Of a stretch of DNA of 50,130 nucleotides, positions 5,977-50,130 are shown one piece after another. The stretch spans positions 1 through 50,130 of the IMG/VR virus record IMGVR_UViG_3300038701_001690; one strand, 5' to 3'. This DNA comes from a virus. A model generated the notes under the pieces. That model had not been told where the DNA came from. It was given only the letters and a program-made list of their open reading frames with translations, and searched no databases. A program made the translations under genes and the position numbers. How positions within the stretch are numbered: the first letter of the stretch is position 1; each line of letters begins with the position of its first letter.

Positions 5977-6702
5977 TTAATTTCCTTTGTTTGTTTTCAG
6001 TTCATCTAAAAGAGTGGATAAAGAGTTTTTAATTTCTTCATTCTCTTTTTCGGATTTTTCCTCATCTTCATTAACTTGATCACCAAGTTTATCTTCTTCC
6101 TCTTGCTCACCAAGATTCAAAGATTTGATTTTGGAAATGATTGCTTCAGTGGCTTTTCTTGAATAACCACCTTCTTCTCTTAAATTTTTCTCAATATCTT
6201 TTAAGGTTTCTAGACCTTCGATATTTTTAACACCGGTCAGGACTGCGCTTTCATTCATTGGGAATACTACTAAAGAAGCATCTCTTATTCTGAGTTCTTT
6301 AATAACTCTAATTGGGCCAATCCATTCAACTTCAGTTGCTTTGTATCCGATTGATAGACCGCCGTATTCGCCGTGTCTTGCCTTGGCAACGATGTCATCA
6401 TTGAATTTAATTCCTTTGATGATTTCAGATTTAATCCAAACGCCATTTTCAGTCCTCTTATACTCGGTAACAATACCAAGAGGCATTCCAGAAAACCCAT
6501 CATGTTGATGCAAAAAAGTCGGAAGCCCATACTCTTTAAATGAATCAATAACAGCCTGAACTTCAACACGGTCATCACCTTGATCAACGTCATCAGTAGA
6601 AAGTATACCTTCAATTATATGATATGTTTGACCGCTCTCTTCATCGACTCTCTCGCCAACTGCCTTCACTTCAAAAGGGAATGCATACTTATCTTTTTTC
6701 AT
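5977..6702 (-). CDS. Prohead serine protease (HK97 / S78 family)
   Basis: Start moved to ATG 6702 (AGGA SD), so the product begins MKKDKYAFPFEVKA. GILSTDDVDQGDDRV and HQHD motifs. Acidic C-terminal tail. Confidence 0.75.
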   Translation of the reverse strand: MKKDKYAFPFEVKAVGERVDEESGQTYHIIEGILSTDDVDQGDDRVEVQAVIDSFKEYGLPTFLHQHDGFSGMPLGIVTEYKRTENGVWIKSEIIKGIKFNDDIVAKARHGEYGGLSIGYKATEVEWIGPIRVIKELRIRDASLVVFPMNESAVLTGVKNIEGLETLKDIEKNLREEGGYSRKATEAIISKIKSLNLGEQEEEDKLGDQVNEDEEKSEKENEEIKNSLSTLLDELKTNKGN

Positions 6703-7663: not shown

Positions 7664-9159
7664 TACTTATCATTTCCCCAAAACAGCTTTATTTTTTTAT
7701 CAATTTGTTCATCGGTGTATTTTCTTTCACCTTCATCATTCTTCAATTCTTCTAACTGCTTACGATATCTTCCTGAGGGAGTAGTATAATCATACTTTTC
7801 TTCCGGTGGTGGTGCAGTATTGCCAGTTTGACCGGCATCTTGAACAGGAACTGAAGACGAAGGAACGAGAAGTACGTTGCCAGCGTCAAGGGGGAGGGGG
7901 TCGAAGCCAAGTAGATCACGCCCTTCATCTACAGTTATAACCTTTGAATTTAATTTCTTATCCGTAACGGCTGATTGTTTGACCTGAAGAGCCGGTACAG
8001 CCTGTGGATCATAGCAAAGCTTGTATCGCCCTGATTGGTCATATCTTCTCATAAACAAAAGATTCATTTCATCATAAAACCAATTCGCAAATGGGAGAAC
8101 GTCAGAATCGTACATCATATATTTTGACTCTTCAAAGTTGTTCATGGTCATTGAAGAGCTGGTTATCATCGGCAATGGAATGCCCTTGGTAATATAAATT
8201 TGCTCTCTGACAAACTTAATTAACTCCATAAACTCCATGTCTTTATTGGTCTGCGATAACTGTTTAAAATCTTTACCGCCTTCAAGTATAAGAACATCAC
8301 CAGCATTTTCAGCACCGGCTTTCTTTTCTGCCATCTGTGTTCTCATGCGGTTATACTGCGCATCAGTTAAGTTGAATTCTTTGTCTATGATCAATACACC
8401 AGAAGGCCTCATTCCTTTCTTGAGAACAGAAGTATTATTTATATTTGAATATTCATACTCTTCTATTTCATGAAAAATTGGATTAAGCGGGGATAACCCA
8501 AAGAAATCACCACGGCTTTCTCTTGAATTGAATGTCTTAATTTGCCAAAGTTCTTTCGTTCCATCTTTAGTAAAGTATGAGCTTATCTGCTGTACCGCAT
8601 CTTCTGCATAGTGGAAGTTTTCATTCCATTGATTATTATTTAACTGCCATGTTCTCACTCTGCCGTCAGTGCCTTCAACAGGAACAAGGTCAGCCGGATT
8701 GATAAAATAGAATTCAAGTGGTTTAGCTTCTTCTGAAAGAGCCGTTACCAGTATAAAAATATCGCCAGTCACCTCAATTGATGGAACTATTGATTTAATA
8801 AATTCAATCCAAGTTTTATCTCTATTCGGAGTTTTAAGGAATTCTAAAATCTGCGTGGCTGGGATGTTTGGATCTGGCTTTCTTAGATAAACATTTTCAA
8901 CATTGTCATATATTGCCGGAATAATTGTGGTCATTGCCTTGGATTTTCTATCTACAGCATCAAAGATAGGTGAAATCTTTTCGTAGTATTTCCACGCTTG
9001 CGCATTTCTTAAAAGGGCTATGCCATTAGCTGAGCCAAAAGCATATGGGGAAAATATACTAAATCCGCTATTGCACTCAGAAATCCCATCGCTTTTAGTT
9101 TCTAAATCTTCTTCTACGCTTTTACTAAAATAGTTTGTGATGGATTTAAATAAGTTCAT
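7663..9159 (-). CDS. Portal protein
   Basis: 498 aa between TerL and the MuF-like gene. Size and order are typical. Confidence 0.85.
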   Translation of the reverse strand: MNLFKSITNYFSKSVEEDLETKSDGISECNSGFSIFSPYAFGSANGIALLRNAQAWKYYEKISPIFDAVDRKSKAMTTIIPAIYDNVENVYLRKPDPNIPATQILEFLKTPNRDKTWIEFIKSIVPSIEVTGDIFILVTALSEEAKPLEFYFINPADLVPVEGTDGRVRTWQLNNNQWNENFHYAEDAVQQISSYFTKDGTKELWQIKTFNSRESRGDFFGLSPLNPIFHEIEEYEYSNINNTSVLKKGMRPSGVLIIDKEFNLTDAQYNRMRTQMAEKKAGAENAGDVLILEGGKDFKQLSQTNKDMEFMELIKFVREQIYITKGIPLPMITSSSMTMNNFEESKYMMYDSDVLPFANWFYDEMNLLFMRRYDQSGRYKLCYDPQAVPALQVKQSAVTDKKLNSKVITVDEGRDLLGFDPLPLDAGNVLLVPSSSVPVQDAGQTGNTAPPPEEKYDYTTPSGRYRKQLEELKNDEGERKYTDEQIDKKIKLFWGNDK

Positions 9160-9185: not shown

Positions 9186-9217
9186 AAACTATCTCTGTTA
9201 CAAGGATCGTTCAAATT
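9186..9217 (-). promoter_or_regulatory. Candidate late-class promoter upstream of the portal gene
   Basis: Minus strand reads AATTTGAAC, 17 nt, TAGTTT. -35 at 9209-9214, -10 at 9186-9191. Confidence 0.3.
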
Positions 9218-11687
9218 ATAGCCACATGGCTCTAGCTTCCTTTTTAGGCTTGTTAATCATTTCTGTTATCCCAGTGACGCAATCCGGTGCATCATCGTGC
9301 GTATTAGCTTTAAACGCTCGCTTAAATTTTGTCAAATGAGTATAGAATACCGGCCAGCGTACATCCCATCCTTCAGGCATGATAAGCATTTCATTTACCG
9401 TTGCTGAGTTTGAAATAATCCGTGCTTCTTTGTTGTCCGATTGGTGAAACCATCTTATTTTACATGTTGCCGGAGTGAGCTCATCGACTTTTCTCGCATA
9501 TCCTCTGCCTCCATTGTTGCTTTCAATGTCGGCTTCTCTGGTATTATTTCTCTTGAGCATTCCGGCAACCAAAGGCTCTGTAACCTCCATAGGTGCATCA
9601 GTGTAAGAAACATCAATAACATATGCAAGACCGTCACTTGTCTCATCGTAATCTATAGAACAAAGGAAGTCATCGCCAGTATCAGCCGTGTCAGTATAAT
9701 TTTTCCGACAAATAACATTATCGGGCAAATCTCTATATGTTTTAAACGGCTTATAAAGTAAGCCCTCTGTGCTTTCTGGATTTCCTTGATAGAGAGAATT
9801 GAACTTAATTGGATCTTTACCACGTGAGTTCTTAAGCTTCTTAAGTGAATGTCTCTCAGGCCAAAGAGGTTCTTCTTTATTTCTTGGATCTAAATCGGTT
9901 GATTCATTCTCTTTTATTGCTTGGAAATTAACCTTAAACCAACAATCTGAATTTTTGTGCTCTTCGATATCCTCAAAGCTTTTTATTTCAATGACGGTTT
10001 CTTTTGATTCTATAAAACCAACAAGATCTTCTTCGTGCCAACGGGTGAAAACAATCAACTGCTGTGAGTCATTGTGTAAACGGGTATCTGCTACAGTGGT
10101 ATACCAATCTATAACATTTTGTCTTATTGTTGGTGAATTGGCCTCTTTCCAGTCTTTATAAAGGTCATCCATTAGAAGAACGTCAACCGGATCGCCAGTT
10201 AAACCACCCTGATAACCAACCATTTTCAAAGATCCTGTATGATCAACAATCTCCATTTCTTCGGCAGTGTTTATCTTTGTAACATCTTTCTTTCCAGACA
10301 ATCGAGCATCAAATACATCTTGATAAGTCGGCTCACTCATAAGGTTCTTTACACCACGACCAAACTTTCTGGCTTTGGTTGCCGAATAACAAACAGTAGC
10401 AATCTTTAAATCAGGATCACGCCCAATCATCATAGCAGGAGTATAAATTGAAGAACCGTTACTATTATGAGTCAATACTAAATTTTCACCAACAAGATAA
10501 ACGCCTCCCTCAACAGTAATACACCTCCCACATACTGGATTTTTCAATTTAGTTATACTGGTTATTGATCTTCTTCTTTTTGGAAATGATATTTTTACTG
10601 GTCTCTTTCTGATCAATGCAACAGGGATATCAAAATGTGGATTAAAGCACAATTGATACACAGGGTTTCTCCCAATTATACCAGAAGATGAGACAACAGG
10701 AGGAAATTTACTTATGGTAACCCTACATCCAAGGCTGACAACTAATTTCTTAATGTCATCAATAAGAGTTTTATTACATCCAGAGTAAGTAATTCTTCCA
10801 TTTTTTTGATAGGTGTATCCATCTGTATCAATTAGACCTGCCAAAAGCTCAAGACGTTGCTCTGTTGATGATATTAGGTACTTTTCTGGAATGTGCTTAC
10901 TATTTAAAACGCCTATATCTCTTAATTTCCCTCTAAGATCCCTGAAATATGTGGTGTGAACATTTGTCTGTGGATGGATTGCGCAAGAGGTTGATCGAAG
11001 ACCAAGTTTTTTTATTTTTTCAACAACTTCCATATCTTCATGAGAATGATTTATAGTTGGCCTACCAGAACTCCCATCTCCAAGCCAAGCGCCTAAAACA
11101 TACGGGTGAACTTCTAACTGTTTCTTATCAAAATCAACAGATGTATTGTAATCTACAGAAAATCTTCCTCTCCCTCCGCGCTTATTTTTTTTACCTATCC
11201 AAATCCCCCTTTGAATCATTTGTTGAGTTTCTAAAGTTACCTCTCTTCTTTTATCTCTGTCCATAACCACCCATTCATGGCGTGCGTGACATTTAATTTC
11301 AGAACCATCTATGAATTTAACTAAATGATCAGCTTTATTCTCTTTATGGACTTCAAGAACTTTAACAGGATTGCCTTCTCTGCCAAATACAAAATCGCCC
11401 TCTTTGATGTCGCCATGTGTGGCCCATCCCTTAGTGGTGAGAATAGGCGTATCATCAGAAATCAGCTTGCCATGTTGCGGTGGACAACTAACAATAAGCT
11501 TCTTAATATCTCCGTGGATGAACTTATCTAATATTTTATAATAAGTTTTATGAAACGGGGAGCTGTGAAACTTCGGCATTGTATAACGCGCCAAAGCTAA
11601 AGAGTGATTCCTTGCGAAGTTTATCTTCCGGAGTTTTACTTCTTGGTCTGCAAGGAGTATGTCTTCATTCGTAATCGCTAAACTCAT
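9216..11687 (-). CDS. terL: Terminase large subunit, interrupted by an intein in the Walker A loop
   Basis: The PPQHGK / S P-loop is split at aa 74/409. The C-terminal half has terminase ATPase/nuclease character. Follows TerS. Confidence 0.9.
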   Translation of the reverse strand: MSLAITNEDILLADQEVKLRKINFARNHSLALARYTMPKFHSSPFHKTYYKILDKFIHGDIKKLIVSCPPQHGKLISDDTPILTTKGWATHGDIKEGDFVFGREGNPVKVLEVHKENKADHLVKFIDGSEIKCHARHEWVVMDRDKRREVTLETQQMIQRGIWIGKKNKRGGRGRFSVDYNTSVDFDKKQLEVHPYVLGAWLGDGSSGRPTINHSHEDMEVVEKIKKLGLRSTSCAIHPQTNVHTTYFRDLRGKLRDIGVLNSKHIPEKYLISSTEQRLELLAGLIDTDGYTYQKNGRITYSGCNKTLIDDIKKLVVSLGCRVTISKFPPVVSSSGIIGRNPVYQLCFNPHFDIPVALIRKRPVKISFPKRRRSITSITKLKNPVCGRCITVEGGVYLVGENLVLTHNSNGSSIYTPAMMIGRDPDLKIATVCYSATKARKFGRGVKNLMSEPTYQDVFDARLSGKKDVTKINTAEEMEIVDHTGSLKMVGYQGGLTGDPVDVLLMDDLYKDWKEANSPTIRQNVIDWYTTVADTRLHNDSQQLIVFTRWHEEDLVGFIESKETVIEIKSFEDIEEHKNSDCWFKVNFQAIKENESTDLDPRNKEEPLWPERHSLKKLKNSRGKDPIKFNSLYQGNPESTEGLLYKPFKTYRDLPDNVICRKNYTDTADTGDDFLCSIDYDETSDGLAYVIDVSYTDAPMEVTEPLVAGMLKRNNTREADIESNNGGRGYARKVDELTPATCKIRWFHQSDNKEARIISNSATVNEMLIMPEGWDVRWPVFYTHLTKFKRAFKANTHDDAPDCVTGITEMINKPKKEARAMWL
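10464..11465 (-). mobile_element. Intein (334 aa) with LAGLIDADG homing endonuclease, class-3-like
   Basis: Block A LISDDTPILT, block B HARHEW, LGAWLGDGSS and LAGLIDTDGY motifs, block F GRCITVEG, block G LVLTHN followed by +1 Ser. Confidence 0.8.
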
Positions 11688-12072
11688 CTAACCCATCCTT
11701 GACACGCTTAAGAGCCTCAAGCCTTTCTTCCTCAGTCAAATCGGTGTTTAAATTAACGTTAGTATTATGAACCTCAGATTTTTCTATATACCCTCTTTCA
11801 GATCCACGGCACTTCAAGAAGAATATTGTAGCACTGGTATTGCCGGCATTTATCTGCTTATGAAGTGAAGATTCGGCAAAATCCAAGACAACTTCTTTTA
11901 CTGCATCTACATGACCAGCAAACTCTTTGTCTTTTTTAAGCCAGTCATAAAATGTTGATTTTGCAATTCCGGTTGATTTACAAGCCTGCGTAACAATACC
12001 GAGTGATTTCTCTAATGCGTGAAGAAATGTATTCTTCTGCATATTCTCAGCGCCTTTCATTTTTTTAGGCAT
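11665..12072 (-). CDS. terS: Terminase small subunit (HTH type)
   Basis: 135 aa immediately upstream of TerL. Contains HTH GIVTQACKSTGIAKSTFYDWLK and the IFFLK motif. Confidence 0.65.
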   Translation of the reverse strand: MPKKMKGAENMQKNTFLHALEKSLGIVTQACKSTGIAKSTFYDWLKKDKEFAGHVDAVKEVVLDFAESSLHKQINAGNTSATIFFLKCRGSERGYIEKSEVHNTNVNLNTDLTEEERLEALKRVKDGLDEFSDYE

Positions 12073-13244
12073 TATGCTACTCCTGTTTCAAATACTTTGT
12101 CTGAATCAATACCTTTGAGTTTACAGTACCTCTTTACTATAACATCGCAATATTTCGGATCGAGCTCCATCATTCTACATTGACGATTAGATTGATCGCA
12201 CGCAATTAAGGTTGATCCAGAACCACCGAATAAATCAAGGACTATATCTCCTGAGTTTGAGCTTTTAGTAAGAGCGTATCCAGAAAGTTTAACGGGCTTC
12301 TGCGTTGGGTGATCGTAATCAGATCCAGCATCTTTGCCGATCTCCCACACTCCTCCATCACGGCTTCCATTTAATTCTCTTCTTCCATTCTGGCAAAATA
12401 AACAAAGCTCATAGTTTCTCGCATAATCTCCAGAAAGGTCACCAATACATCCCCCGCCTTTATACCAAACTACGGTTGATTTAAACTCATCTTTGTACAT
12501 TTCCCTCCATTGATCATAGACGGGATCTGAAGTCCAAATATACCAGTGAGTATTATTCTTTGAATATATTTTAAGTAAAATTCTAAAATCGAGAATAACA
12601 TCATCATTCATAATCACGTCATGATTGTCATTCATATTGTTTGTATAACTAACACCATAAGGAGGATCTGTAAAAACCATGTCAGCGAGGTCACCATCCA
12701 TCAACATCTTCACATCTACCTCACTGGTAGAATCCCCGCACATTAAACGGTGATCGCCTAACTGGTATATCCTTCCGAGTTCAGTCTTTGGATCTTCTGG
12801 AGGCTCTTCATCGTAATCATCCTCTTCAACCTCTGGCTCTTCTTCCGGTTCAAAGAAATCTAATTCTTCAGAACTGAATCCCCACTCTATCAATGATTCT
12901 ACTTCAAAGTGATTTGCTAACATATCATAATCAAAAGAGCCGGTATTTTTATTAAGCCTTACATTAAGCTCTTTTTCCTGCTCCAATGTAAGCTTCAATT
13001 CAACTGTAGGGACTTCAGTATATCCAAGGGACTCAGCAACTTTGACTCTCTGATGGCCACCTATTATAATATCCATTCTGTCTTTATGTTTATTGACAAT
13101 TACCGGATCGACAAAGCCAAATCTTTTAATGCTGTCCGAGATCGTTCGGTGCTGTTCTTCCGAAAGTGACCTTGGATTATACTCAGCCGAAATAAGATCT
13201 TTTGGGTTTCTTGGCACTATCGTTGCAATAGATTTCTGAGCCAT
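12072..13244 (-). CDS. ParB-like nuclease domain fused to DNA methyltransferase (N6A/N4C, beta class)
   Basis: N-terminal ParB box IIIGGHQRVKV. TDPPYG (motif IV) lies before HPTQKP and FGGSGST (motif I). Confidence 0.85.
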   Translation of the reverse strand: MAQKSIATIVPRNPKDLISAEYNPRSLSEEQHRTISDSIKRFGFVDPVIVNKHKDRMDIIIGGHQRVKVAESLGYTEVPTVELKLTLEQEKELNVRLNKNTGSFDYDMLANHFEVESLIEWGFSSEELDFFEPEEEPEVEEDDYDEEPPEDPKTELGRIYQLGDHRLMCGDSTSEVDVKMLMDGDLADMVFTDPPYGVSYTNNMNDNHDVIMNDDVILDFRILLKIYSKNNTHWYIWTSDPVYDQWREMYKDEFKSTVVWYKGGGCIGDLSGDYARNYELCLFCQNGRRELNGSRDGGVWEIGKDAGSDYDHPTQKPVKLSGYALTKSSNSGDIVLDLFGGSGSTLIACDQSNRQCRMMELDPKYCDVIVKRYCKLKGIDSDKVFETGVA

Positions 13245-24113: not shown

Positions 24114-24341
24114 ATGATTGAAGATTCACATTTAATAGTACCAGAAGACGAAATGAATGAATTTATGGAAAGCTGGGTAAAAGGCTCTTCCGAAAAAGAA
24201 GGAATTCTTGAAATTTTACTCGAAACAAGGGCAGTAATAAAGATAAATGATTGGGACGGTGAAAGAGATCGTGTCAATTTCCTTTGTGACGGTCACTGTT
24301 TTGAAGATCACTTGAAGTTAATAGTAAATGGAGATTGGTAA
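24114..24341 (+). CDS. Hypothetical protein (75 aa)
   Basis: ORF track. First gene after the boxed promoter. Confidence 0.5.
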   Translation: MIEDSHLIVPEDEMNEFMESWVKGSSEKEGILEILLETRAVIKINDWDGERDRVNFLCDGHCFEDHLKLIVNGDW

Positions 24342-25234
24342 TGAGTACCGAAGTAGTAAAAAACAAGAAGAATGAAGTTGCTCTTGATGGAGCTGAAGAG
24401 ATCTTTGCAAACGCAGTTAAAAATTGTCATGAAATTTCAGCAATGGCAAACACAGCAATCAAGTCAATTAAGCTTGGTAAGGGGATAATGGAGCTTAGGA
24501 GCGCTCTTGACAATCCAGAGATAACAAATCTTATAATGTCGTTTCAAAATAACGGCTTAGGATTCTTAACAGATAATAGAAATAATGGTTATGCTCCACC
24601 AATTGTTAAAGATTGCGCCCTTGAAGCATTAACTGCCGGAGCTTTTCTACACGGAAATGAGTTTAACATCATCGCTGGCCGGTGCTACTTCGCTCAAAAC
24701 TTCTTTGTAAGAATGGTTAGAGAATATTGTACTCTTCATAAAATAAAGAGGCATTTCACTTATATTGAAAAGAAAACTGGCGCTGAAGGGAAGCAATCAA
24801 GGTGGGAGGTTAAAGCTCATATAACTTGGAAGCTTCCAACAGATCAGGAAAAGCAGACTTCCATTGAAACTTATAATCTTGTCGGTGTTAGCTCTGATCA
24901 AGTAATTGGAAAAGCTAAAAAGAGAGCTCACCAGTGGCTTTATAATGAGCTGACCAACAATAACTTCATTGCCGTTCCTGATACCGATTATGACATTGAT
25001 ATGGATGATATTTCCAAAACTGAAAAGCCAGAGGCAAACACAAATCCAGATATTGTTCAATATTTAATTGATAAGTTTGGCGCTCCTAATGTTTCTGGAT
25101 GTTTAAAGGATATGGGAGTTATGCAGGCAAATCAATCTTTTGATGATCTTAAAAAAGATGAACAAGCAATTTCATCATTGATTGCCGGAAGAGAATCTTT
25201 TGAAAAAGAAATAGAAGCATTCAGTAATATATAA
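24341..25234 (+). CDS. Putative single-strand annealing / recombination protein (RecT-like?)
   Basis: ATG at 24341 (TAATG overlap). Sits immediately upstream of a PD-(D/E)XK exonuclease. CALEALTAGAFLHGNEFNII shows weak RecT-like character. Confidence 0.35.
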   Translation: MSTEVVKNKKNEVALDGAEEIFANAVKNCHEISAMANTAIKSIKLGKGIMELRSALDNPEITNLIMSFQNNGLGFLTDNRNNGYAPPIVKDCALEALTAGAFLHGNEFNIIAGRCYFAQNFFVRMVREYCTLHKIKRHFTYIEKKTGAEGKQSRWEVKAHITWKLPTDQEKQTSIETYNLVGVSSDQVIGKAKKRAHQWLYNELTNNNFIAVPDTDYDIDMDDISKTEKPEANTNPDIVQYLIDKFGAPNVSGCLKDMGVMQANQSFDDLKKDEQAISSLIAGRESFEKEIEAFSNI

Positions 25235-25240
25235 ATAAAA

Positions 25241-25263
25241 AAGGCCGGAGTGGGAAGCTCCGA
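25241..25263. other. Intergenic hairpin
   Basis: GGCCGGAG(25241-25248) pairs with CTCCGACC(25256-25263), one mismatch. A6 lies upstream, which is a T-run on the minus strand. Confidence 0.4.
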
Positions 25264-25288
25264 CCTTCAAACCAAAATAGGAATTGTT

Positions 25289-26419
25289 ATGTTTAATGAT
25301 AAACCAATTTATTTGGAAAAACAATCTTCCGACATAAAAAAGGAAGAGGACTATTATAAAGAAAATAAGTTTTTAAGCTTTAGTTCGCTTAAGGCTATGT
25401 TCGATTGTCCATCTCAGCACTTATTAGGCGAGCCTCAAAGCTGGGACAAGGCAGAGTTTATGATAGGACATGGCGCTGAGAAATACGCTCTTGAAGGGCC
25501 AGAAGCTTTTGAAGATTGGATTCAAAACGGGAAGAAAGACGGTGAAGCGATAATTGACAAGGCTATGAAGCAACCAACAAAGGCTTCAATGGAGCTTTAT
25601 GATAAATTGCTTATTGCTATTGATTGGAGAAACGCTAATACGCAGTTAACTGGATTTAGGTTACAATTAAATAAAGAAGATCTTTTGACCGATGAAGAAG
25701 TTGAAAGGATTTCTAAAAATATAGAAGTTCTCGAAAACAAAAAACTTGCCAACGGCAAAAAGCCAACATCAGCACAATTGAAAGCAATGGATAAGCTTAT
25801 TGATGAGCATGGCGAAGAACCACCGATTAAACCACAACCAACTGAAGCTTCGTGGGTTAATATGTGCCGTATCTGTGGCGAAGCATCAAGGCGCTCTAAG
25901 TGGATGATGGATTTAGTAACTCACCCTGATACAAGATTTCAAGAGGCTATCACTATTGAGTGGGGAAGAACAAAGTTTAAAATGCGCTTGGATATAATTA
26001 ACCCTACACTTCAAATCATATTTGACTTTAAAACAGTTGGATATAAACTTGACCGTAACGGATGGAAAGTAGAAACTCTTCCTTCCGGCAAAAAGAAAAC
26101 TGTACGGATAAATTTTGTCGAAGATCAGCAATATTTACTTCAAGCAGGGATCTACACAGTCGGGGCATATGCTAAGTACGGGGAATTTTTCGACTACTAT
26201 ATAGGAGCAGTTGAGAAAGGCGAAATGCCACGCTTTGAAATCCTTTCAGTTCCCTTTGATGACATTCAGCCACATATGCAAAAGGTTGATGAGCAGAAAA
26301 ATCTCTATTACGATATGAAGAATGGCAAGATTAAGCCGTTTATGTGTGATAAACATACATGTAAGTATTGCGCTCCAAGACGAAGAGTAGATGAGCCTAT
26401 TTACTGGAAAGAGGTTTAA
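25289..26419 (+). CDS. PD-(D/E)XK exonuclease (RecB/Cas4-like) with Cys cluster
   Basis: ATG at 25289 (AGGA SD); the track start at 25250 is a GTG inside the hairpin. RLDII...DFK, QAGIY (QxxxY), CRIC and CDKHTCKYC. Confidence 0.65.
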   Translation: MFNDKPIYLEKQSSDIKKEEDYYKENKFLSFSSLKAMFDCPSQHLLGEPQSWDKAEFMIGHGAEKYALEGPEAFEDWIQNGKKDGEAIIDKAMKQPTKASMELYDKLLIAIDWRNANTQLTGFRLQLNKEDLLTDEEVERISKNIEVLENKKLANGKKPTSAQLKAMDKLIDEHGEEPPIKPQPTEASWVNMCRICGEASRRSKWMMDLVTHPDTRFQEAITIEWGRTKFKMRLDIINPTLQIIFDFKTVGYKLDRNGWKVETLPSGKKKTVRINFVEDQQYLLQAGIYTVGAYAKYGEFFDYYIGAVEKGEMPRFEILSVPFDDIQPHMQKVDEQKNLYYDMKNGKIKPFMCDKHTCKYCAPRRRVDEPIYWKEV

Positions 26420-26895: not shown

Positions 26896-27201
26896 ATGGG
26901 TTATTATTCAAGTTTTGAAGAGATTTCCAATTTTAATGAAGATCAATTAAATGTATTAAGTGAAATATCAGGAATCGATTTAACTTTAGATCATTATTAT
27001 TTAGCATCTGATTGCAAATGGTATGAATTCGAGAAAGACTTAAAAGAACTATCCCTTAGATTTCCAGATACTCTATTTGCAATTGAGCGAGTAGGAGAGG
27101 AAAATCCAGACATGGAAAGAGTTTATGCCAAGAATGGAAAATCTGTTTCTCTTGTTGCTAGAGTATTATGGCCAGAATTTAAAGAGGATGATTTAAAATG
27201 A
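26896..27201 (+). CDS. Hypothetical protein (101 aa)
   Basis: ORF track. Confidence 0.5.
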   Translation: MGYYSSFEEISNFNEDQLNVLSEISGIDLTLDHYYLASDCKWYEFEKDLKELSLRFPDTLFAIERVGEENPDMERVYAKNGKSVSLVARVLWPEFKEDDLK

Positions 27202-27341
27202 AAAAGTGTGGGCCACTTTGCCTAATGTGTGATTGTGGTCGCACTTCCAATAAGTGTAAATTTTACCTTAATAAAATTCGAAGTATTCAAAAGTTGAAGC
27301 CACCAAAGAAAAAGAGAAGTAAAAGAGGTAATAAAAAGTAA
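27198..27341 (+). CDS. Cys-rich basic mini-protein (47 aa, below ORF-track cutoff)
   Basis: Hand translation: MKKCGPLCLMCDCGRTSNKCKFYLNK...KKKRSKRGNKK. ATGA overlap. Confidence 0.35.
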   Translation: MKKCGPLCLMCDCGRTSNKCKFYLNKIRSIQKLKPPKKKRSKRGNKK

Positions 27342-27374: not shown

Positions 27375-27800
27375 CTAGGCTGTGATCATTCCGTTTTTTT
27401 TAGCGTATTTAGAAAGCTCAGAAATGATATTTTCGTAGCAATCAACATCGCCTTTGGTGAACACCTTGAAGTTTGACGGGAAGCGCCCCAGCCTTTTAGT
27501 AACTTCTTCTCTTATATAGTTTTTGCTCATACTGGATAAAAATATTACCTCTCCTTTAAAATTGTTAAGAGCATCAAGTATATAGGTTGCGTCAAAATTC
27601 TTCAACACCCAATCAATTACGAGGATGTGAGGCTTTTCAAAAGGTAACTGGCAATAGAAACTTAGACAGTCATCTACATTTTTTATTTTGACCTTATCGA
27701 GCTTTGCTTTTATGATGTGATCAAAGTAAACCTGTGATGATCTATCATCTTCTAAGTGCAAAACTCTTAATGATTTTGGCTTTTCTAGTAGCTGAATCAT
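27375..27800 (-). CDS. Stand-alone response-regulator receiver (CheY-like REC) domain protein
   Basis: LHLEDD (acidic pair), ILVIDWVL (phospho-acceptor Asp; compare CheY VISDWNMP), IFLSS, VFTKG (Lys). 141 aa with no output domain. Confidence 0.75.
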   Translation of the reverse strand: MIQLLEKPKSLRVLHLEDDRSSQVYFDHIIKAKLDKVKIKNVDDCLSFYCQLPFEKPHILVIDWVLKNFDATYILDALNNFKGEVIFLSSMSKNYIREEVTKRLGRFPSNFKVFTKGDVDCYENIISELSKYAKKNGMITA

Positions 27801-27801
27801 T

Positions 27802-28293
27802 TCATTTTTTTTCCTGTGTTTTTTCGTAAAGCTTGGCGATATGTTCCCTTATTTCTTTGTTTTGTTCTTTAAATTCTGCTTTCATCTCTTTGACTTCATC
27901 TTTCAAATTTATCTCTATTTTATCCAAACTTGCAGTTAATTCACTATTTAATTCGCTGAATTTATTGAAGATTGCTTTGATTTGATTGTTAGAAATAGCG
28001 TTTTCTTTATCGAGCTTGGTGACAATACCGTTAAGTTTTTGGCATTCAAGAGAAAATTTATCCATGATAACCCTCGCATTATCTCTATAATCTGAGAGTT
28101 TTCTATTTGCGCCTTCAATATCTTTTTCCCACTCCTTCTTGGCTGAATAAATAAAATCTTGCTTTCGAGACTTCTCTTTGAGCTTCCAAAATGCCATTAA
28201 AACAGTCATGAGAACAGACCACGCAAATAGGCCTATAGTTACAAAACTGCCCTCTGATAAACCTAAAAAATACATGGCCTGCTCTACCTTCAA
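27802..28293 (-). CDS. Membrane-anchored coiled-coil protein
   Basis: N-terminal hydrophobic helices (FVTIGLFAWSVLMTVLMAFW), then a long coiled coil with a single His (EIREHIAKL). Start is TTG 28293 or ATG 28275. The stop is coupled to the REC gene (TGAAATG). Confidence 0.55.
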   Translation of the reverse strand: MKVEQAMYFLGLSEGSFVTIGLFAWSVLMTVLMAFWKLKEKSRKQDFIYSAKKEWEKDIEGANRKLSDYRDNARVIMDKFSLECQKLNGIVTKLDKENAISNNQIKAIFNKFSELNSELTASLDKIEINLKDEVKEMKAEFKEQNKEIREHIAKLYEKTQEKK

Positions 28294-28317
28294 ATTAATT
28301 CATACTTTTAGAAAATG

Positions 28318-28346
28318 TTGTTACAAAAATGTAATAATATTATAAT
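28318..28346 (+). promoter_or_regulatory. Sigma70-like promoter for the Cro-like gene
   Basis: TTGTTA(28318-28323), 17 nt, TATAAT(28341-28346). The spacer contains the palindrome TTACAaaaaTGTAA. Confidence 0.6.
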
Positions 28347-28367
28347 GCCACTTTTTTCCTAAAAATC
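28339..28367 (-). promoter_or_regulatory. Candidate leftward promoter for the REC cassette; its -10 overlaps the rightward -10
   Basis: Minus-strand TATAAT is the reverse complement of ATTATA(28339-28344). Weak -35 GATTTT lies 17 nt upstream. Confidence 0.35.
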
Positions 28368-28422
28368 TAATTACGACTTTTTTAGTTTACCATATTGAAA
28401 AGTCATATAAAAAGTATTATTA

Positions 28423-28635
28423 ATGATTAATAACTTGAAGGTTTTTATGGTTTCAAAAAACTACTATTCCGATATTTCTTTTGAGCAGTTCAGGGAAATT
28501 ATCGATCCAAATAAAACGATGACACAGATTCAAATTGCGGATCACTTAGACGTTAGCCAAGCGTCAATCTCCTTATGGAAGAAAAACAATAAGATCCCCA
28601 AAGTGTTTGAAATAATAGCGAGGGGGAGAGTGTGA
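28423..28635 (+). CDS. Cro/XRE-like HTH protein
   Basis: MTQIQIADHLDVSQASISLWKKNNKIP is a typical HTH. Divergent from the REC cassette. Confidence 0.6.
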   Translation: MINNLKVFMVSKNYYSDISFEQFREIIDPNKTMTQIQIADHLDVSQASISLWKKNNKIPKVFEIIARGRV

Positions 28636-28881: not shown

Positions 28882-29265
28882 ATGAACGAATTACAAACTA
28901 CTAAATTTATGGATATTGAAATAAGATATTCCAACGATGTTGAGCCCCTTTTTATGCTTGGCGATATATGCAAAGCTTTAGGCCTCACAAATCCAACAAT
29001 GGCAAAGAAATCTGTTTTTCCTGATTATATAAAGAAAGAGTTTTTCAAATCTGGCAACCGATCTATAAAAGCAAATGCATTAACTGAAGCCGGATTGTAT
29101 CAGTTGATTATGCTATCAAGAAAAGATGAAGCTATAAAATTTCAGCGTTACATATTTGAGGATTTGCTACCTAGAATCAGAAAAGAGAACTTCTTTGCCA
29201 ATCTTGAAGAAAATGAATCAACCATTCTTGGCAAAAGCTTTGCAAGGATTATGAGTAAAAGATGA
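28882..29265 (+). CDS. Bro-N domain protein (antirepressor-like)
   Basis: EPLFMLGDICKALGL...LTEAGLYQLIMLSRKDEAIKFQRYIFEDLLPRIRK, the BRO N-terminal domain pattern. Confidence 0.75.
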   Translation: MNELQTTKFMDIEIRYSNDVEPLFMLGDICKALGLTNPTMAKKSVFPDYIKKEFFKSGNRSIKANALTEAGLYQLIMLSRKDEAIKFQRYIFEDLLPRIRKENFFANLEENESTILGKSFARIMSKR

Positions 29266-32612: not shown

Positions 32613-33032
32613 TTAATCTTCTGACTCCCAATCATTATGACTTGCAAGTTCAAGAGCTTCAAACCATGCTTTAGCTCTCCATTTATACATTCCATCTTCA
32701 ATGCATAATCTATAAATTTCTTCGTTGCTTTGATGCATGACCGCTAAAGAATTTGGCCCTTTGAAAACTCCTTGATCTGAAATATAAAATATTCCATCGT
32801 GCAAACCACTTCCACGTCTTGATGATTTCGTGTCGATTGTAGGCCCTGACGCACCAAAAGTAAAATTTTCTTTAATGGTGACAAATCCAGTCTTGGTTAT
32901 TTTAATGAGGTCATCTTCATATTCATAACCATAAATAGATGTTTTCTCTGTGTGAGGAATAAGCAGTTTAAATTCCTGCCTTATAAATCTCCACCAAGGG
33001 CTAATCTTTTTATATTTTTTATGGAAGTTCAT
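32613..33032 (-). CDS. DUF1353-like protein
   Basis: ATG at 33032; the track start at 33041 is GTG. FTFGASGP...GLHDGIFY...EIYRLCIEDGM pattern recalled from the DUF1353 family. Confidence 0.45.
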   Translation of the reverse strand: MNFHKKYKKISPWWRFIRQEFKLLIPHTEKTSIYGYEYEDDLIKITKTGFVTIKENFTFGASGPTIDTKSSRRGSGLHDGIFYISDQGVFKGPNSLAVMHQSNEEIYRLCIEDGMYKWRAKAWFEALELASHNDWESED

Positions 33033-33033
33033 C

Positions 33034-33213
33034 TCATTCACCTACTAAATATTTATAACCTTGAACACACCACTTCCAAAAAGGAGGAAGAGCGGTGATA
33101 GACAATCCTCTCTCTGAAATTTCACCAGTATATTCAATATGCGTTGCTGGACTTTTTATAGTCGTAACACATGATGAAAGTAAAATACACAAAATTAAGA
33201 TTGCCTTCTTCAT
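33034..33213 (-). CDS. Small lipoprotein (59 aa, below ORF-track cutoff)
   Basis: Hand translation: MKKAILILCILLSSCVTTIK..., with lipobox LLSSC. The start lies 1 nt after the upstream TAA. Confidence 0.5.
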   Translation of the reverse strand: MKKAILILCILLSSCVTTIKSPATHIEYTGEISERGLSITALPPFWKWCVQGYKYLVGE

Positions 33214-39332: not shown

Positions 39333-39551
39333 GTGAATAATTCAGATCAACCGGCATTCCCAACTAAAGAGTTGCTTGAATCAACAGATGTTGTCTTTAA
39401 GAAAGGGGGCTTAACAAAGCGTGAGTACTTCGCAGGCTTGGCGCTACAGGGATTTCTATCTAGAGATATAAACAATATGGATGGTTCTGAAATTGTTGGA
39501 GCTTCTATAAGTTATGCAGATGAACTTCTTCAACAATTGGAAGAATTTTAA
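39333..39551 (+). CDS. Hypothetical protein (72 aa)
   Basis: GTG start with GGAGAAA SD. The GLTKREYFAGLALQGFL motif is seen in many small phage proteins (from memory). Confidence 0.5.
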   Translation: MNNSDQPAFPTKELLESTDVVFKKGGLTKREYFAGLALQGFLSRDINNMDGSEIVGASISYADELLQQLEEF

Positions 39552-39552
39552 A

Positions 39553-39888
39553 ATGAGCAATTTGACAGTTATGACCGATGAAGAATTTATAGTATTTGCT
39601 CATAATGAAGGATACACAATAGGTAGCAATGAGAAAATAACCGACTTTAGAGAAAGAGTCACAAAAAGTATCATTTACACTAAGGATAATAAAGTTAGCA
39701 AAGAAGAGGATTATTTAAGAAAACTAAATAAAATTTATCATGAAGGTCACTTGGAATTGATGGAACTACTTAATAAATATTTTCTATGCAAAAATTTAAA
39801 AGGAAAAGAAAAGGCCTTGATTAATGATTTGATTGGGAAGTTAAACGACACAAGTTTTAAGATTATGAAGGAGTTGATTGCGAAATGA
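39553..39888 (+). CDS. Hypothetical protein (111 aa)
   Basis: ATG at 39553, 1 nt after the upstream TAA. The longer track start overlaps the upstream gene. Confidence 0.5.
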   Translation: MSNLTVMTDEEFIVFAHNEGYTIGSNEKITDFRERVTKSIIYTKDNKVSKEEDYLRKLNKIYHEGHLELMELLNKYFLCKNLKGKEKALINDLIGKLNDTSFKIMKELIAK

Positions 39889-40073
39889 AAATAGAAACTT
39901 TTATAATCGTCAGCACTCGTTGTATTGACGCTGAAACCGGAAAGTATATGACAAAGCAGAAATGTTTTTCTTTGGATAATTTACTTGGAAGAGATTGCCC
40001 TGTAGATGTATCATTAATAAACGCCTCTGAGGATCATAAGCGGGAAATAAAAAAGGAGATTAAGGAGAGATGA
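39885..40073 (+). CDS. Hypothetical protein (62 aa)
   Basis: ORF track. ATGA overlap. Confidence 0.45.
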   Translation: MKIETFIIVSTRCIDAETGKYMTKQKCFSLDNLLGRDCPVDVSLINASEDHKREIKKEIKER

Positions 40074-40117
40074 GCTCCTTTGATATTAATACGCTTTATA
40101 AGGAATTGACTAATTAA

Positions 40118-40558
40118 ATGACTAAATCTTATTATGAATATAACTATGATGATAAATGGAAAATCAATTACATAGATAAGAGTAATTTTACCTGTCTTGA
40201 ATTTCGGGGAGCGCAATATCTTGGAATAAAGAAAATAAAATTTTCTGATTTTAAATTATACCATATAAAAAACAATTTTATAATTGATGACAAAGGTAAA
40301 AAATTGGATTTAAACCTTCACTTCGTGGATGCTTATAGTGAAATTTACAGAAATATAAAGCCACTAAAATATTGGCCTTTTATTCGATATGAAGATCAAT
40401 GCACCCAATGTTTTGAAGATTGCACCATGGATCTTTTTTATTACAATAACAACAGGAATAGAACATGCTTAAATTGCTATAAGAAAAAACAAAGAGACAG
40501 ATACCAAGAAATAAAGAAAACCAAACTATTATTATCAATAATGAATAAAGGAAGATAA
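40118..40558 (+). CDS. Hypothetical protein with C-terminal Cys4 motif
   Basis: CTQCFEDC ... CLNCYKKK. Very N/K/Y/I-rich. Confidence 0.5.
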   Translation: MTKSYYEYNYDDKWKINYIDKSNFTCLEFRGAQYLGIKKIKFSDFKLYHIKNNFIIDDKGKKLDLNLHFVDAYSEIYRNIKPLKYWPFIRYEDQCTQCFEDCTMDLFYYNNNRNRTCLNCYKKKQRDRYQEIKKTKLLLSIMNKGR

Positions 40559-40559
40559 A

Positions 40560-41129
40560 ATGAATAATATAAATAGAGTAAATGATCTCCTCAACTCAAT
40601 GAATGAAACATTGCATGAAATTGCAATTTTGTATTATAAGGACTTTTGCCAAGATGAGAAGGCAGAAGATTACTATAGGGATAATACTATGCTAACTAAA
40701 ACTCTTCTTAGAAGGTTGGTGATGATAGCTGAGAATAAAATTATACCTGAGATTTTTTATATATCATCATTCCCACATTTCTCAATACTTAGAGACCTCC
40801 CAAAGAAATGTCAGAGCAATCTTATTCATAACAAAATAAAAGTCATATCAAATGATGGATCGCATTACCTAAGATTTTTTGTTGATGTTCCAACAGAAAA
40901 ACTACCTATTATATTTGATAGGAGCTTAAATATAATTAGAAATATAGAAGAACAGGAAATTATACTATCATCAAGAAGGAATAACATTGTTGAGAAGGCA
41001 TCTTTTAGTAAAGCTATTTTAATAAAAGAACTAAAAAAGCACAAGATAAATTATAAAGACATAATAAAAATATGTGATAAGGATATTCTTGAAAGAGCGA
41101 TTGAGCACTATAGAGAATTGACCACATAG
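40560..41129 (+). CDS. Hypothetical protein (189 aa)
   Basis: ORF track. ATG 1 nt after the upstream TAA. Confidence 0.5.
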   Translation: MNNINRVNDLLNSMNETLHEIAILYYKDFCQDEKAEDYYRDNTMLTKTLLRRLVMIAENKIIPEIFYISSFPHFSILRDLPKKCQSNLIHNKIKVISNDGSHYLRFFVDVPTEKLPIIFDRSLNIIRNIEEQEIILSSRRNNIVEKASFSKAILIKELKKHKINYKDIIKICDKDILERAIEHYRELTT

Positions 41130-48940: not shown

Positions 48941-50029
48941 TTATACATCTGTGTAATCAATTTCATCCTGAGCAATAATTCTTCCGGTGTCTTCGTGAAT
49001 GTAATCTGAGTTTATTTTTCTGACTGCATAACTATCAGCAATATAAGTGTCGCAACTCGTTATATTAACATTACAAGCGAAGTCATAACGGTGAATATAA
49101 TAAGAGGCGTTATAAGTTTCTATACCGTCAGCTATGTAATACATCATATTCATTTTTGACGTTAAAGAAGAATCGGGAATATAGCCAACCAGTAAAGATA
49201 AGATTGCATTTCTTAGATCGTTTCTTGCTATGTCCTGACCTTGAACGGCAGAAACTTTATCCTGCACTGGGAATATTGCGAATATGCTTATATTTTCCTG
49301 AGTGTGAATAATCCTTGAATCACCTTCTTGGAAAGTTCTTTCAAAATCGGTGTCATTATTTCTATCTCTTGAAGATGCAGTTGCACCTGCAATAACAAAA
49401 AGCCAAAGCTTCTCAACTGGTTGAGCTGTATAAGAGTCTAAAATTCTTGACAAATCAACATCAGAAGAAACACAAACATCATTTACATTTATATAAGAAG
49501 GCGTTCCAATCAAAGATCCATCAGGAGCGTTAACTGTTGATACTTCAAAATCTCCGGCATTAACAGCGGTAACAGTAAACCTTGAGTTATATCTTGGAAG
49601 GTCAAGTTCATTTACTACCGGCGATCCTGTAGGCTCTCCAGTAATAGAATTTGAGCATTCAATTTCTACCTGATATCTCGAAGGTACTGAAATAATAATA
49701 AAGGTGTCGTTCCACTCTGCCTCAGTTGCTCCGGTGATTGTAACGGTGGTATTAAACCCTTCTGTAAATTCGTGAACTTCATCAACCTCTATAATTGCAC
49801 TTTGAGAAGTAGCGGAAAGATTCACAGTAACAGAGTTTATAGAATTTTGATAAGTTAATCCAGTAATAATAACATCGTCATTAACGGATGGAAGATCTTC
49901 TGCGCTGACTACGGTCATAACATTTGAAGAAACGCTTGCGCTTGTTCCAGCTTTGAAGTCTCCTGAAAATGAAGGATATGCAACCGGTAAATTTTCTCTG
50001 AGGTGTTGTTCTATATCTGGGATTCTCAT
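48941..50029 (-). CDS. Virion structural protein, first gene of the tail module (tail completion/terminator-like C-terminus?)
   Basis: 362 aa. aa 75-135 carry the same repeat module as the J-like protein. Function is uncertain. Confidence 0.4.
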   Translation of the reverse strand: MRIPDIEQHLRENLPVAYPSFSGDFKAGTSASVSSNVMTVVSAEDLPSVNDDVIITGLTYQNSINSVTVNLSATSQSAIIEVDEVHEFTEGFNTTVTITGATEAEWNDTFIIISVPSRYQVEIECSNSITGEPTGSPVVNELDLPRYNSRFTVTAVNAGDFEVSTVNAPDGSLIGTPSYINVNDVCVSSDVDLSRILDSYTAQPVEKLWLFVIAGATASSRDRNNDTDFERTFQEGDSRIIHTQENISIFAIFPVQDKVSAVQGQDIARNDLRNAILSLLVGYIPDSSLTSKMNMMYYIADGIETYNASYYIHRYDFACNVNITSCDTYIADSYAVRKINSDYIHEDTGRIIAQDEIDYTDV

Positions 50030-50130
50030 AAAACTCTCTTTATTTATCTAAATTTACTTTTTTATTTATTTTGTTCAAATTGCAGAAAAGTTTAAAAAGC
50101 TTCTTGATTTATATTAAATTGTAATATACA
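50004..50130. repeat. Direct terminal repeat, right copy (identical to 1-127)
   Basis: Exact identity read by eye. Confidence 0.95.
50051..50082 (-). promoter_or_regulatory. Candidate late-class promoter for the tail module (also present as 48-79)
   Basis: Minus strand reads CAATTTGAAC, 16 nt, TAAATT. -35 at 50073-50078, -10 at 50051-50056. Same -10 and flanks as 13296-13330. Confidence 0.45.

Follow-up and report, generated by a model that had tools for sequence, protein, structure and literature searches.

The window analysed here, that is, the whole stretch of 50,130 nucleotides (nt) of IMG/VR virus record IMGVR_UViG_3300038701_001690, carries on its minus strand two adjacent genes that very probably constitute a conserved phage accessory operon, in which a bitopic inner-membrane coiled-coil protein (hereafter the partner) and a divergent, catalytically complete single-domain receiver are encoded by translationally coupled genes. 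Both open reading frames (ORFs) had been described in an original prediction made from the sequence of the window and both were found to be present. Bacteria rely on two-component signalling as their main sensory system, and the conservation of an intact receiver coupled to a membrane coiled-coil protein suggests that the phages carrying the pair plug into the two-component signalling of their hosts.

The receiver gene codes for a stand-alone CheY-like protein of 141 amino acids (aa), in which an acidic pair (E17/D18), the phospho-acceptor D63, S89, K116 and a family-specific P108-x-N110-F111 motif were recognised. All the receiver landmarks listed in the original prediction are therein, although two of them had to be specified: the acidic residues, Asp63, Ser and Lys stand, with the pair being E17-D18 and the conserved Ser being S89. 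Comparison with Pfam gave a match to Response_reg (PF00072) at 17.5 bits (E 0.0047), the alignment being in register over positions 1–88 of the model, and weak matches with Spo0A receivers were also obtained. The 141-aa protein is therefore a remote homologue of Response_reg and not a Pfam-called member, and the proposed receiver assignment stands even though the match is sub-threshold. A HMMER scan of 1.84 billion representative proteins retrieved only 21 receiver relatives, nearly all of them stand-alone and 120–150 aa in length; the family is rare, with ~20 representatives among 1.8 billion proteins. Individually, 16 of 20 relatives matched Response_reg, with a best E value of 4e-6, and the family profile matched 222 chains in the PDB, with response-regulator receivers and CheY foremost (best E 2.9e-7). 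In the alignment of 20 family members, on which all the conservation counts for the receiver are based, [E/D]17, D18, D63, [S/T]89 and K116 are each kept in 20/20 sequences; D18, D63, P108 and K116 are invariant, and D19 is variable. Conservation of this quintet in every member argues for a retained phosphochemistry over a pseudo-receiver.

The AlphaFold2 model of the receiver, built with the family alignment, was obtained at high confidence (predicted local distance difference test, pLDDT, 93.4; predicted template-modelling score, pTM, 0.87) and shows a (βα)5 topology, with strands at residues 11–16, 37–42, 59–63, 84–89 and 111–115 and helices at residues 20–33, 45–55, 71–79, 93–104 and 121–135. 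In this model D18, D63, S89 and K116 are located at the C-terminal ends of β1, β3, β4 and β5, respectively. Foldseek found 452 fold matches in the PDB at E<1e-3, the best 50 being all receivers, with template-modelling (TM) scores up to 0.82. Profile and fold matches are thus both with receivers, and the finding named beforehand as one that would speak against the assignment, membership of a flavodoxin-like family outside REC and without the acidic pocket, did not materialise. As in CheY, the phospho-acceptor Asp is followed by Trp ('DW'). No output or DNA-binding domain was matched by Pfam or NCBIfam in the receiver or in the partner, in agreement with the output-less receiver originally proposed. 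The invariant PxNF motif, specific to this family, is located in the α4-β5 loop, and the α4-β5 face is the output surface of canonical receivers. Taken together, sequence and model point to a genuine, divergent REC domain with a complete active site.

The upstream gene had been proposed to start from TTG 28293. The gene exists, but its start is most likely the ATG at 28275, giving a protein of 157 aa, because the TTG is replaced by TTA in the close relative L001 and the Joint Genome Institute (JGI) call P0025 has 157 aa as well. The N-terminal membrane anchor followed by a coiled coil, as originally described, was recovered: an acidic N-flank precedes a single transmembrane helix (~residues 11–29) and a basic juxtamembrane stretch (KLKEKSRK), followed by a long helix, a hinge at ~residues 91–95, a conserved (I/V)KxI(F/Y) motif, a second helix and a C-terminal LYEKTQEKK tail. 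The helical region is Pro-free and ~42% of its residues are charged. The AlphaFold2 model, of low confidence, is all-helical, with the transmembrane helix continuous with the long helix (residues 9–90), the hinge at 91–95 and the second helix at 96–156. The eight partners with available DNA align as one family (alignment A6), sharing the short acidic N-flank, one transmembrane helix, the basic juxtamembrane stretch, a Pro-free helical region with 38–47% charged residues, a central (D/E)xR(V/I)Kx(I/L)(Y/F) motif and a C-terminal tail of the form (L/I)(Y/W)xx(K/R)x(D/E)K.

As in the original prediction, neither HisKA nor HATPase was found in the partner by Pfam and NCBIfam, and histidine phosphotransfer (Hpt) domains were not matched either. 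The single His (EIREHIAKL) to which attention had been drawn is indeed there in the window protein, but the position is not conserved across the family (H/H/Q/E/-/R/-/I), so that a role as Hpt or kinase phospho-site was ruled out. Given the lack of any HisKA, HATPase or Hpt signal and the variability of the His, the partner would be neither a kinase nor an Hpt protein, and not a phosphodonor. The cognate kinase or Hpt gene, with a conserved phospho-His, that belongs to a classical two-component system or phosphorelay is thus missing beside the receiver. When compared with the PDB, the partner profile gave generic coiled-coil noise only. Two other names were discarded as coiled-coil noise, namely the ExbB/TolQ name assigned by JGI, whose match lies outside any transmembrane bundle, and a ZorA match by PADLOC (E 0.012). 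As for the orientation in the membrane, N-flanks are acidic and devoid of K/R in 7/8 partners and C-flanks hold 3–5 K/R, charges that favour an N-out/C-in topology, even if this metric weakly separates true inner-membrane spanins (i-spanins).

The TGA-A-ATG junction between the two genes implies translational coupling, as already proposed for the TGAAATG sequence, and the arrangement of stop and start codons was confirmed. Genomic context was available for the receivers of ten lineages, 21–91% identical to the window protein; in 10/10 a partner gene coding for 113–168 aa is located directly upstream, on the same strand, a linkage that persists among receivers with no more than 21–49% identity. 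The distance from partner stop to receiver start ranges from -4 to +5 nt across lineages, with ATGA overlaps in L008, L019, L023 and L024. By means of partner hidden Markov models (HMMs), a partner was found upstream of every family receiver in the examined loci; on the contrary, the HMM search revealed no partner gene beside the ordinary bacterial hybrid-kinase receivers L011–L018, which had been retrieved by a metagenome scan with alignment A4 and were used as negative control. When the partner profile was used in a word-indexed search, no loci came up other than those of the receiver family. The membrane coiled-coil partner would thus be obligate for the receiver family, as far as can be judged from sequence.

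No member of the receiver family was found by tblastn in 50,697 GenBank phage records, nor by pattern scans of IMG/VR with the receiver, alignment A4 and the exonuclease anchor, and a genome-contig scan with the exonuclease anchor gave no match. Literature searches and defence-system and phage libraries did not retrieve any description of a module combining a receiver with a membrane coiled-coil protein, in line with the original prediction, whose author was aware of no described phage module of such architecture.

Selection on the pair was estimated by the Nei-Gojobori method on window and L001 sequences (~85% nucleotide identity). The ratio of nonsynonymous to synonymous substitution rates (dN/dS) was 0.055 in the first part and 0.10 in the second part of the receiver gene, and 0.074 in the coiled coil and 0.22 in the transmembrane part of the partner gene, to be compared with 0.044 for DnaB and 0.15 for the exonuclease as reference genes. 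Both genes are thus under strong purifying selection, hence functional.

Table 1. Features of the pair and its surroundings, in window coordinates
Feature	Position	Strand	Basis or remark
Receiver (REC/CheY-like) gene, stand-alone, 141 aa	27375..27800	-	ORF, family profile, AlphaFold2, Foldseek
Gene junction TGA-A-ATG, partner stop to receiver start one base apart	27798..27804	-	sequence
Partner gene, 157 aa	27802..28275	-	ORF; ATG 28275 by comparison with L001 and JGI call P0025
Divergent intergenic region, partner gene/HTH gene	28276..28422	.	AT-rich, highly conserved with L001
Small CI/Cro-type helix-turn-helix (HTH) gene, divergent from the pair	28423..28635	+	Pfam Phage_CI_repr 22.9 bits (gathering score 22)
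Bro-N antirepressor-like gene	28882-29265		after HTH gene and 74-aa gene; Bro-N 60.2 bits, PHROG anti-repressor matches
Lipoprotein, 59 aa, lipobox LLSSC, module membership uncertain	33034..33213	-	beside DUF1353-like gene 32613-33041

As for the genome in which the pair resides, an exact direct terminal repeat of 127 bp was found at both ends of the window (nt 1–127 and 50004–50130), which indicates that the contig represents a whole phage genome (~50.0 kb), circularly permuted or terminally redundant. The GC content is 36.5% and there are zero tRNA genes. The phage is an uncultured, marine-type myovirus, with tail sheath, tape measure, Mu-like baseplate, portal, major capsid protein and large terminase genes, together with a ParB-methyltransferase and DnaB and DnaD-like replication genes, and its hosts probably are Flavobacteriaceae. 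No close relative of the phage was found among GenBank phages: the portal protein is only ~25% identical to that of any isolate and a search for near-identical DNA in GenBank phages did not retrieve any relative of the pair region. No kinase (HisKA, HATPase) or Hpt domain and no integrase was matched by Pfam and PHROGs in any tested ORF of at least ~120 aa, which agrees with the original statement that the genome codes for no histidine kinase, and no endolysin, holin or spanin was recognised in any tested window ORF by the same two collections. Most of the genes are on the minus strand and plus-strand blocks are the exception, so that the pair does not interrupt otherwise plus-strand genes as had been proposed.

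Some further features of the genome were recorded. The large terminase ORF (nt 9216–11687, minus strand) is unusually long (823 aa), with the canonical TerL match confined to residues 413–817 and residues 39–326 matching other TerL, DnaC-like loader and primase P-loop PHROGs; its N-terminal ATPase region could have arisen by duplication or fusion, or the ORF could consist of two fused genes. Just upstream of it, the product of nt 12072–13244 (minus strand) joins a ParB-like N-terminal domain to a DNA methyltransferase (PHROG 498, E 8e-105). A three-gene plus-strand island (nt 39514–41129), whose middle gene (nt 40118–40558) has a weak HNH-endonuclease PHROG match, lies within the minus-strand tail/baseplate module and may be a mobile insertion.

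Going to the surroundings of the pair, the intergenic region that separates it from the HTH gene, almost invariant between window and L001, is presumably a promoter/operator region. In it (28318–28346) a TTACA-N4-TGTAA palindrome overlaps a sigma-70-like TTGTTA-17-TATAAT site facing the HTH gene and is a candidate operator site for the product of that gene. The block formed by the HTH, 74-aa and Bro-N genes adjoins the pair in the window/L001/L019 clade only and is missing next to it in the other lineages. In L002, L020, L022, L023 and the P0004 contig the pair immediately follows tail-fibre genes on the same strand, with no adjacent HTH gene, is often preceded by a chaperone-like gene (~181 aa) and a DUF1353-like gene (~139 aa), and converges on recombination/early genes (RecT, YqaJ/DUF3799, CP76 CII-like regulators). 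L021, binned to a Psychroserpens metagenome-assembled genome, is the only carrier that is clearly temperate; its integrase and S24-peptidase CI-like repressor lie ~4–6 kb from the pair. Divergence from a Cro-like HTH gene, as noted in the original prediction, thus holds for the window, L001 and L019 but not for the other lineages. The tail genes of the window, like the pair, are on the minus strand, and the arrangement is most simply explained if the pair has retained its ancestral orientation and an insertion placed the HTH/Bro-N block between it and the 481-aa fibre gene.

On the other side of the pair, an ORF of 47 aa (nt 27198–27341, plus strand) runs convergently towards the receiver gene; its product, rich in Cys at the N-terminus (CGPLCLMCDCG...C) and very basic in its tail (KKKRSKRGNKK), may be a small zinc-ribbon nucleic-acid-binding protein. 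A plus-strand recombination module (nt 24335–26419) codes for a 299-aa protein without family match, followed by a PDDEXK/DUF3799 exonuclease; the 299-aa protein occupies the slot where relatives have RecT, which suggests an unrecognised family of single-strand annealing proteins.

A small lipoprotein was also found in the vicinity of the pair. In three lineages (L020, nt 8386–8685; L023, nt 6398–6589; L024, nt 1049–1237) the ORF of a homologue overlaps the receiver gene at its 3' end. The family has a lipobox and no Pfam match, its mature proteins count ~44 residues, and an SPxTxIxYxG...PPxW motif is conserved. The lipoprotein of the window is a 57%-identical homologue, located in the tail-fibre region ~5 kb from the pair; no lipoprotein was detected in the examined locus DNA of L001, L002 and L022. 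It could be an o-spanin-like protein or an exclusion lipoprotein of the Llp/Cor type.

The reading that we prefer, tentatively and with something short of even confidence, is that of a membrane-tethered phospho-acceptor tapping the His-Asp signalling of the host. The receiver would be phosphorylated on Asp63, with Mg2+ held by E17/D18, and since the phage encodes no kinase the phosphoryl donors would be histidine kinases or Hpt proteins of the host, or small-molecule donors. Receiver and partner would form a stoichiometric complex, with the coiled coil of the partner probably on the cytoplasmic side, and the partner would thereby hold the receiver at the cytoplasmic face of the membrane, where sensor kinases are located. 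Candidate docking elements are the PxNF surface of the receiver and the RVKxIY motif or the C-terminal tail of the partner. Such a tethered acceptor might drain or read host His-Asp signalling, with the likeliest pay-off being an altered expression of envelope components or receptors, or a weakened signalling of stress or defence, while the phage infects the cell or resides in it as a lysogen. Superinfection-exclusion and moron genes are typically located beside tail-fibre, i.e., receptor-binding, genes. An effect on envelope or receptors, or a damping of kinases, is considered the most plausible pay-off because of the neighbourhood (receptor-binding genes, lipoprotein) and of the precedents set by DtcB and PIT4, discussed below. 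In its most explicit form, in which the pair is a functional membrane-tethered response-regulator decoy siphoning or reading host kinase flux and thereby reprogramming envelope and receptor expression (superinfection exclusion) or silencing stress and defence signalling, the proposal is possible but doubtful.

Several observations weigh against a phospho-acceptor of this kind. The receiver scores below the Pfam gathering score (17.5 versus 30.2 bits). The Lys-Pro dipeptide (K+1 Pro) and the aromatic β5 switch residue (P110 and Y106 in CheY) are widespread, even if not universal, among receivers; in this family K+1 Pro is found in just 1/20 members, with G in the window receiver, and the K-3 switch position is aliphatic and not aromatic (V in the window, I/V in 15/20). 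Because both features are missing, switching and output of the family may be non-canonical. The partner model is of low confidence (pLDDT 66.5). The topology argument is weak too, since bona fide N-in/C-out i-spanins likewise have a K/R excess in the C-flank: it amounts to +2 to +3 in the controls lambda Rz, T7 gp18.5 and P2 LysB versus +3 to +5 in the partner family, and the topology call based on the positive-inside rule was downgraded accordingly. Moreover, L001 has net +2 frameshifts in both genes of the cassette, because of which the module may be dispensable. A +1 frameshift is also present in the adjacent 74-aa gene of L001, the sites being at 9598–9614, 10189–10200 and ~9022, and the neighbouring large genes are intact; since low dN/dS, pointing to purifying selection, was seen on either side of each frameshift, they must have arisen very recently, in an accessory region that the phage can dispense with, or else reflect local errors of sequencing. 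Finally, the lipoprotein adjoins the pair in three lineages and no lysis genes were recognised in the window by Pfam and PHROGs, so that the pair may have a role in lysis.

The explanations weighed in the following overlap in part with the preferred one and with one another, so that their likelihoods are not to be added up to a whole. That the cassette replaces a CI-type repressor and acts as a lysis-lysogeny switch, as originally suggested on the basis of its divergence from the HTH gene, would fit the conserved AT-rich palindromic intergenic region of the window clade, but it is largely refuted by the comparative context and hardly tenable: neither protein of the pair has a DNA-binding domain, the pair is co-directional with tail-fibre genes and has no HTH neighbour in five other lineages, the repressor of L021 is a separate S24 protein accompanied by an integrase and encoded elsewhere, and the window has no detectable integrase. 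A moron-type function in defence or superinfection exclusion, in which the membrane protein would be the effector or an injection blocker and the receiver its phosphorylation switch, both being produced by the prophage or at an early stage of infection so that competing phages are excluded, is unlikely, though less so. The pair occupies a tail-fibre-distal accessory hotspot, with a ~200-nt upstream gap in some lineages that is consistent with an own promoter; at least one carrier (L021) is temperate, CP76 CII-like regulators are near the pair in L022, L023 and the P0004 contig, the frameshifted copy of L001 fits a dispensable accessory function, and distant members of the receiver family weakly match the candidate defence family PDC-M60B. 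On the contrary, PADLOC gave no match for the window receiver and a ZorA hit at noise level for the partner, no recognisable effector domain (nuclease, pore-former, NADase) is present, the window phage lacks a detectable integrase, and purifying selection as strong as that on DnaB is unusual for a dispensable moron.

A lysis or exit module, with an i-spanin-like or holin/antiholin-like partner, the lipoprotein as its outer-membrane mate and the receiver as a cytoplasmic lysis timer reading the state of the host, is rather unlikely. The partner resembles lambda Rz, T7 gp18.5 and P2 LysB in size and architecture (113–168 aa, N-terminal transmembrane helix, two coiled-coil helices with a hinge), in L020, L023 and L024 the gene of a lipobox protein overlaps the receiver gene at its 3' end, with a homologue encoded in the window as well, the cluster follows tail-fibre genes, a common location of lysis cassettes, and no endolysin, holin or spanin was recognised elsewhere in the window. 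Nevertheless, the two genes of a spanin pair are normally adjacent, overlapping or embedded, whereas the lipoprotein gene is sporadic (undetected in the DNA examined for L001, L002 and L022, and 5 kb away from the pair in the window) and is never embedded in, overlapping with or adjacent to the partner gene, from which it is always separated by the receiver gene in the three lineages. Neither an endolysin nor a holin gene flanks the pair at any locus examined, the N-flank is acidic and without K/R in 7/8 partners whereas it is basic in the control i-spanins, no sequence similarity between the partner and Rz/Rz1-type spanins was detected, and the invariant coupling of the partner is to a cytoplasmic receiver and not to the lipoprotein. 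More improbable still is the use of the receiver fold outside His-Asp signalling, either as a phosphoesterase similar to cREC, the cyclic-phosphate-processing receivers linked to NAD+/ADP-ribose (ADPr) systems (PMC7824862), or as a protein-binding pseudo-receiver with a ligand pocket. Its divergent sequence under the Pfam cut-off, the loss of K+1 Pro and of the aromatic switch, the new invariant PxNF and the lack of a phage kinase would all agree with such a use, for which non-two-component Rec domains in phages offer a precedent (PMC7824862). However, all five catalytic and metal-binding positions are kept in 20/20 members, canonical receivers are matched at E ~1e-6 to 1e-7 versus E 7e-3 (rank 35) for the 'cyclic-phosphate processing receiver' of BFVD, and no NAD+/ADPr-processing neighbours were found in any of the 10 contexts.

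To our knowledge, phages touch two-component signalling only by means of few non-homologous inhibitors, such as PIT4, or of truncated effectors, such as phage spo0A. A complete receiver, under strong purifying selection, always accompanied by a membrane partner and devoid of an own kinase, would imply a virus that uses or drains the kinases of its host. If this is true, an acceptor-side hijack would be added to the repertoire of the phage-host conflict, and the receiver would be the first characterised phage-encoded one hijacking host His-Asp signalling from the acceptor side. The partner, in turn, would represent a new class of adaptors (transmembrane coiled coil, RVKxIY motif, LYxxKQDK tail) and a scaffold principle for single-domain regulators, and an unannotated gene pair would be flagged for virome annotation pipelines. 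The impact is limited by the rarity of the family and by the hosts, probably Flavobacteriaceae, which are uncultured for these phages.

Among known systems, the closest resemblance is with the single-domain response regulators CheY, Spo0F, DivK and CpdR, with which the receiver shares the (βα)5 fold, the five active-site positions, the 'DW' of CheY and the lack of an output domain, hence an action through protein-protein contacts. Unlike them, it is encoded by a phage without a kinase, scores below the Pfam threshold, has no K+1 Pro and has Ile/Val at K-3, and its family displays an invariant P108-x-N110-F111 motif and always a dedicated membrane coiled-coil partner. A stand-alone receiver proposed as phosphate buffer or sink, with a functionally required phospho-Asp, is also found in the Detocs system, where bacterial DtcB shares an operon of three genes with a kinase, DtcA, and an effector, DtcC (10.1101/2023.01.24.525353). 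A phosphate-acceptor role is proposed for both proteins, but the phage pair lacks kinase and effector and the companion of its receiver is a membrane coiled-coil protein. An identity with Detocs or anti-Detocs was considered and rejected, PADLOC being negative for the receiver and the Detocs preprint describing no phage homologues of DtcB (10.1101/2023.01.24.525353).

Other phage factors offer parallels in concept. PIT4 of Pseudomonas phage LSL4 targets several host kinases and two-component systems, with infection exclusion as the proposed benefit (PMC10714779); like the pair, it would be a phage factor touching host two-component signalling, without any homology being claimed, but it is itself no receiver domain and lacks a membrane partner. 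Phage-borne spo0A homologues have retained the DNA-binding effector domain without the receiver (PMC10294663), so that a part of a response regulator would be taken by the phage to manipulate host signalling in both cases, the present one, with the receiver only, being the mirror image. Stand-alone receivers as such are not unique to the window phage, as several are annotated in viral databases: the 'CheY-like receiver' A0A6J5RMP2 of an uncultured Caudovirales phage and a 149-aa protein of Alteromonas phage PT11-V22, besides the hybrid kinases of giant viruses, are structural matches with TM-scores of ~0.6–0.7, showing that receiver domains do occur in viral genomes, but have a sequence identity of 10–21% with the present receiver. 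What is new here is a divergent family of receivers, specific to phages, whose defining trait is the obligate partner.

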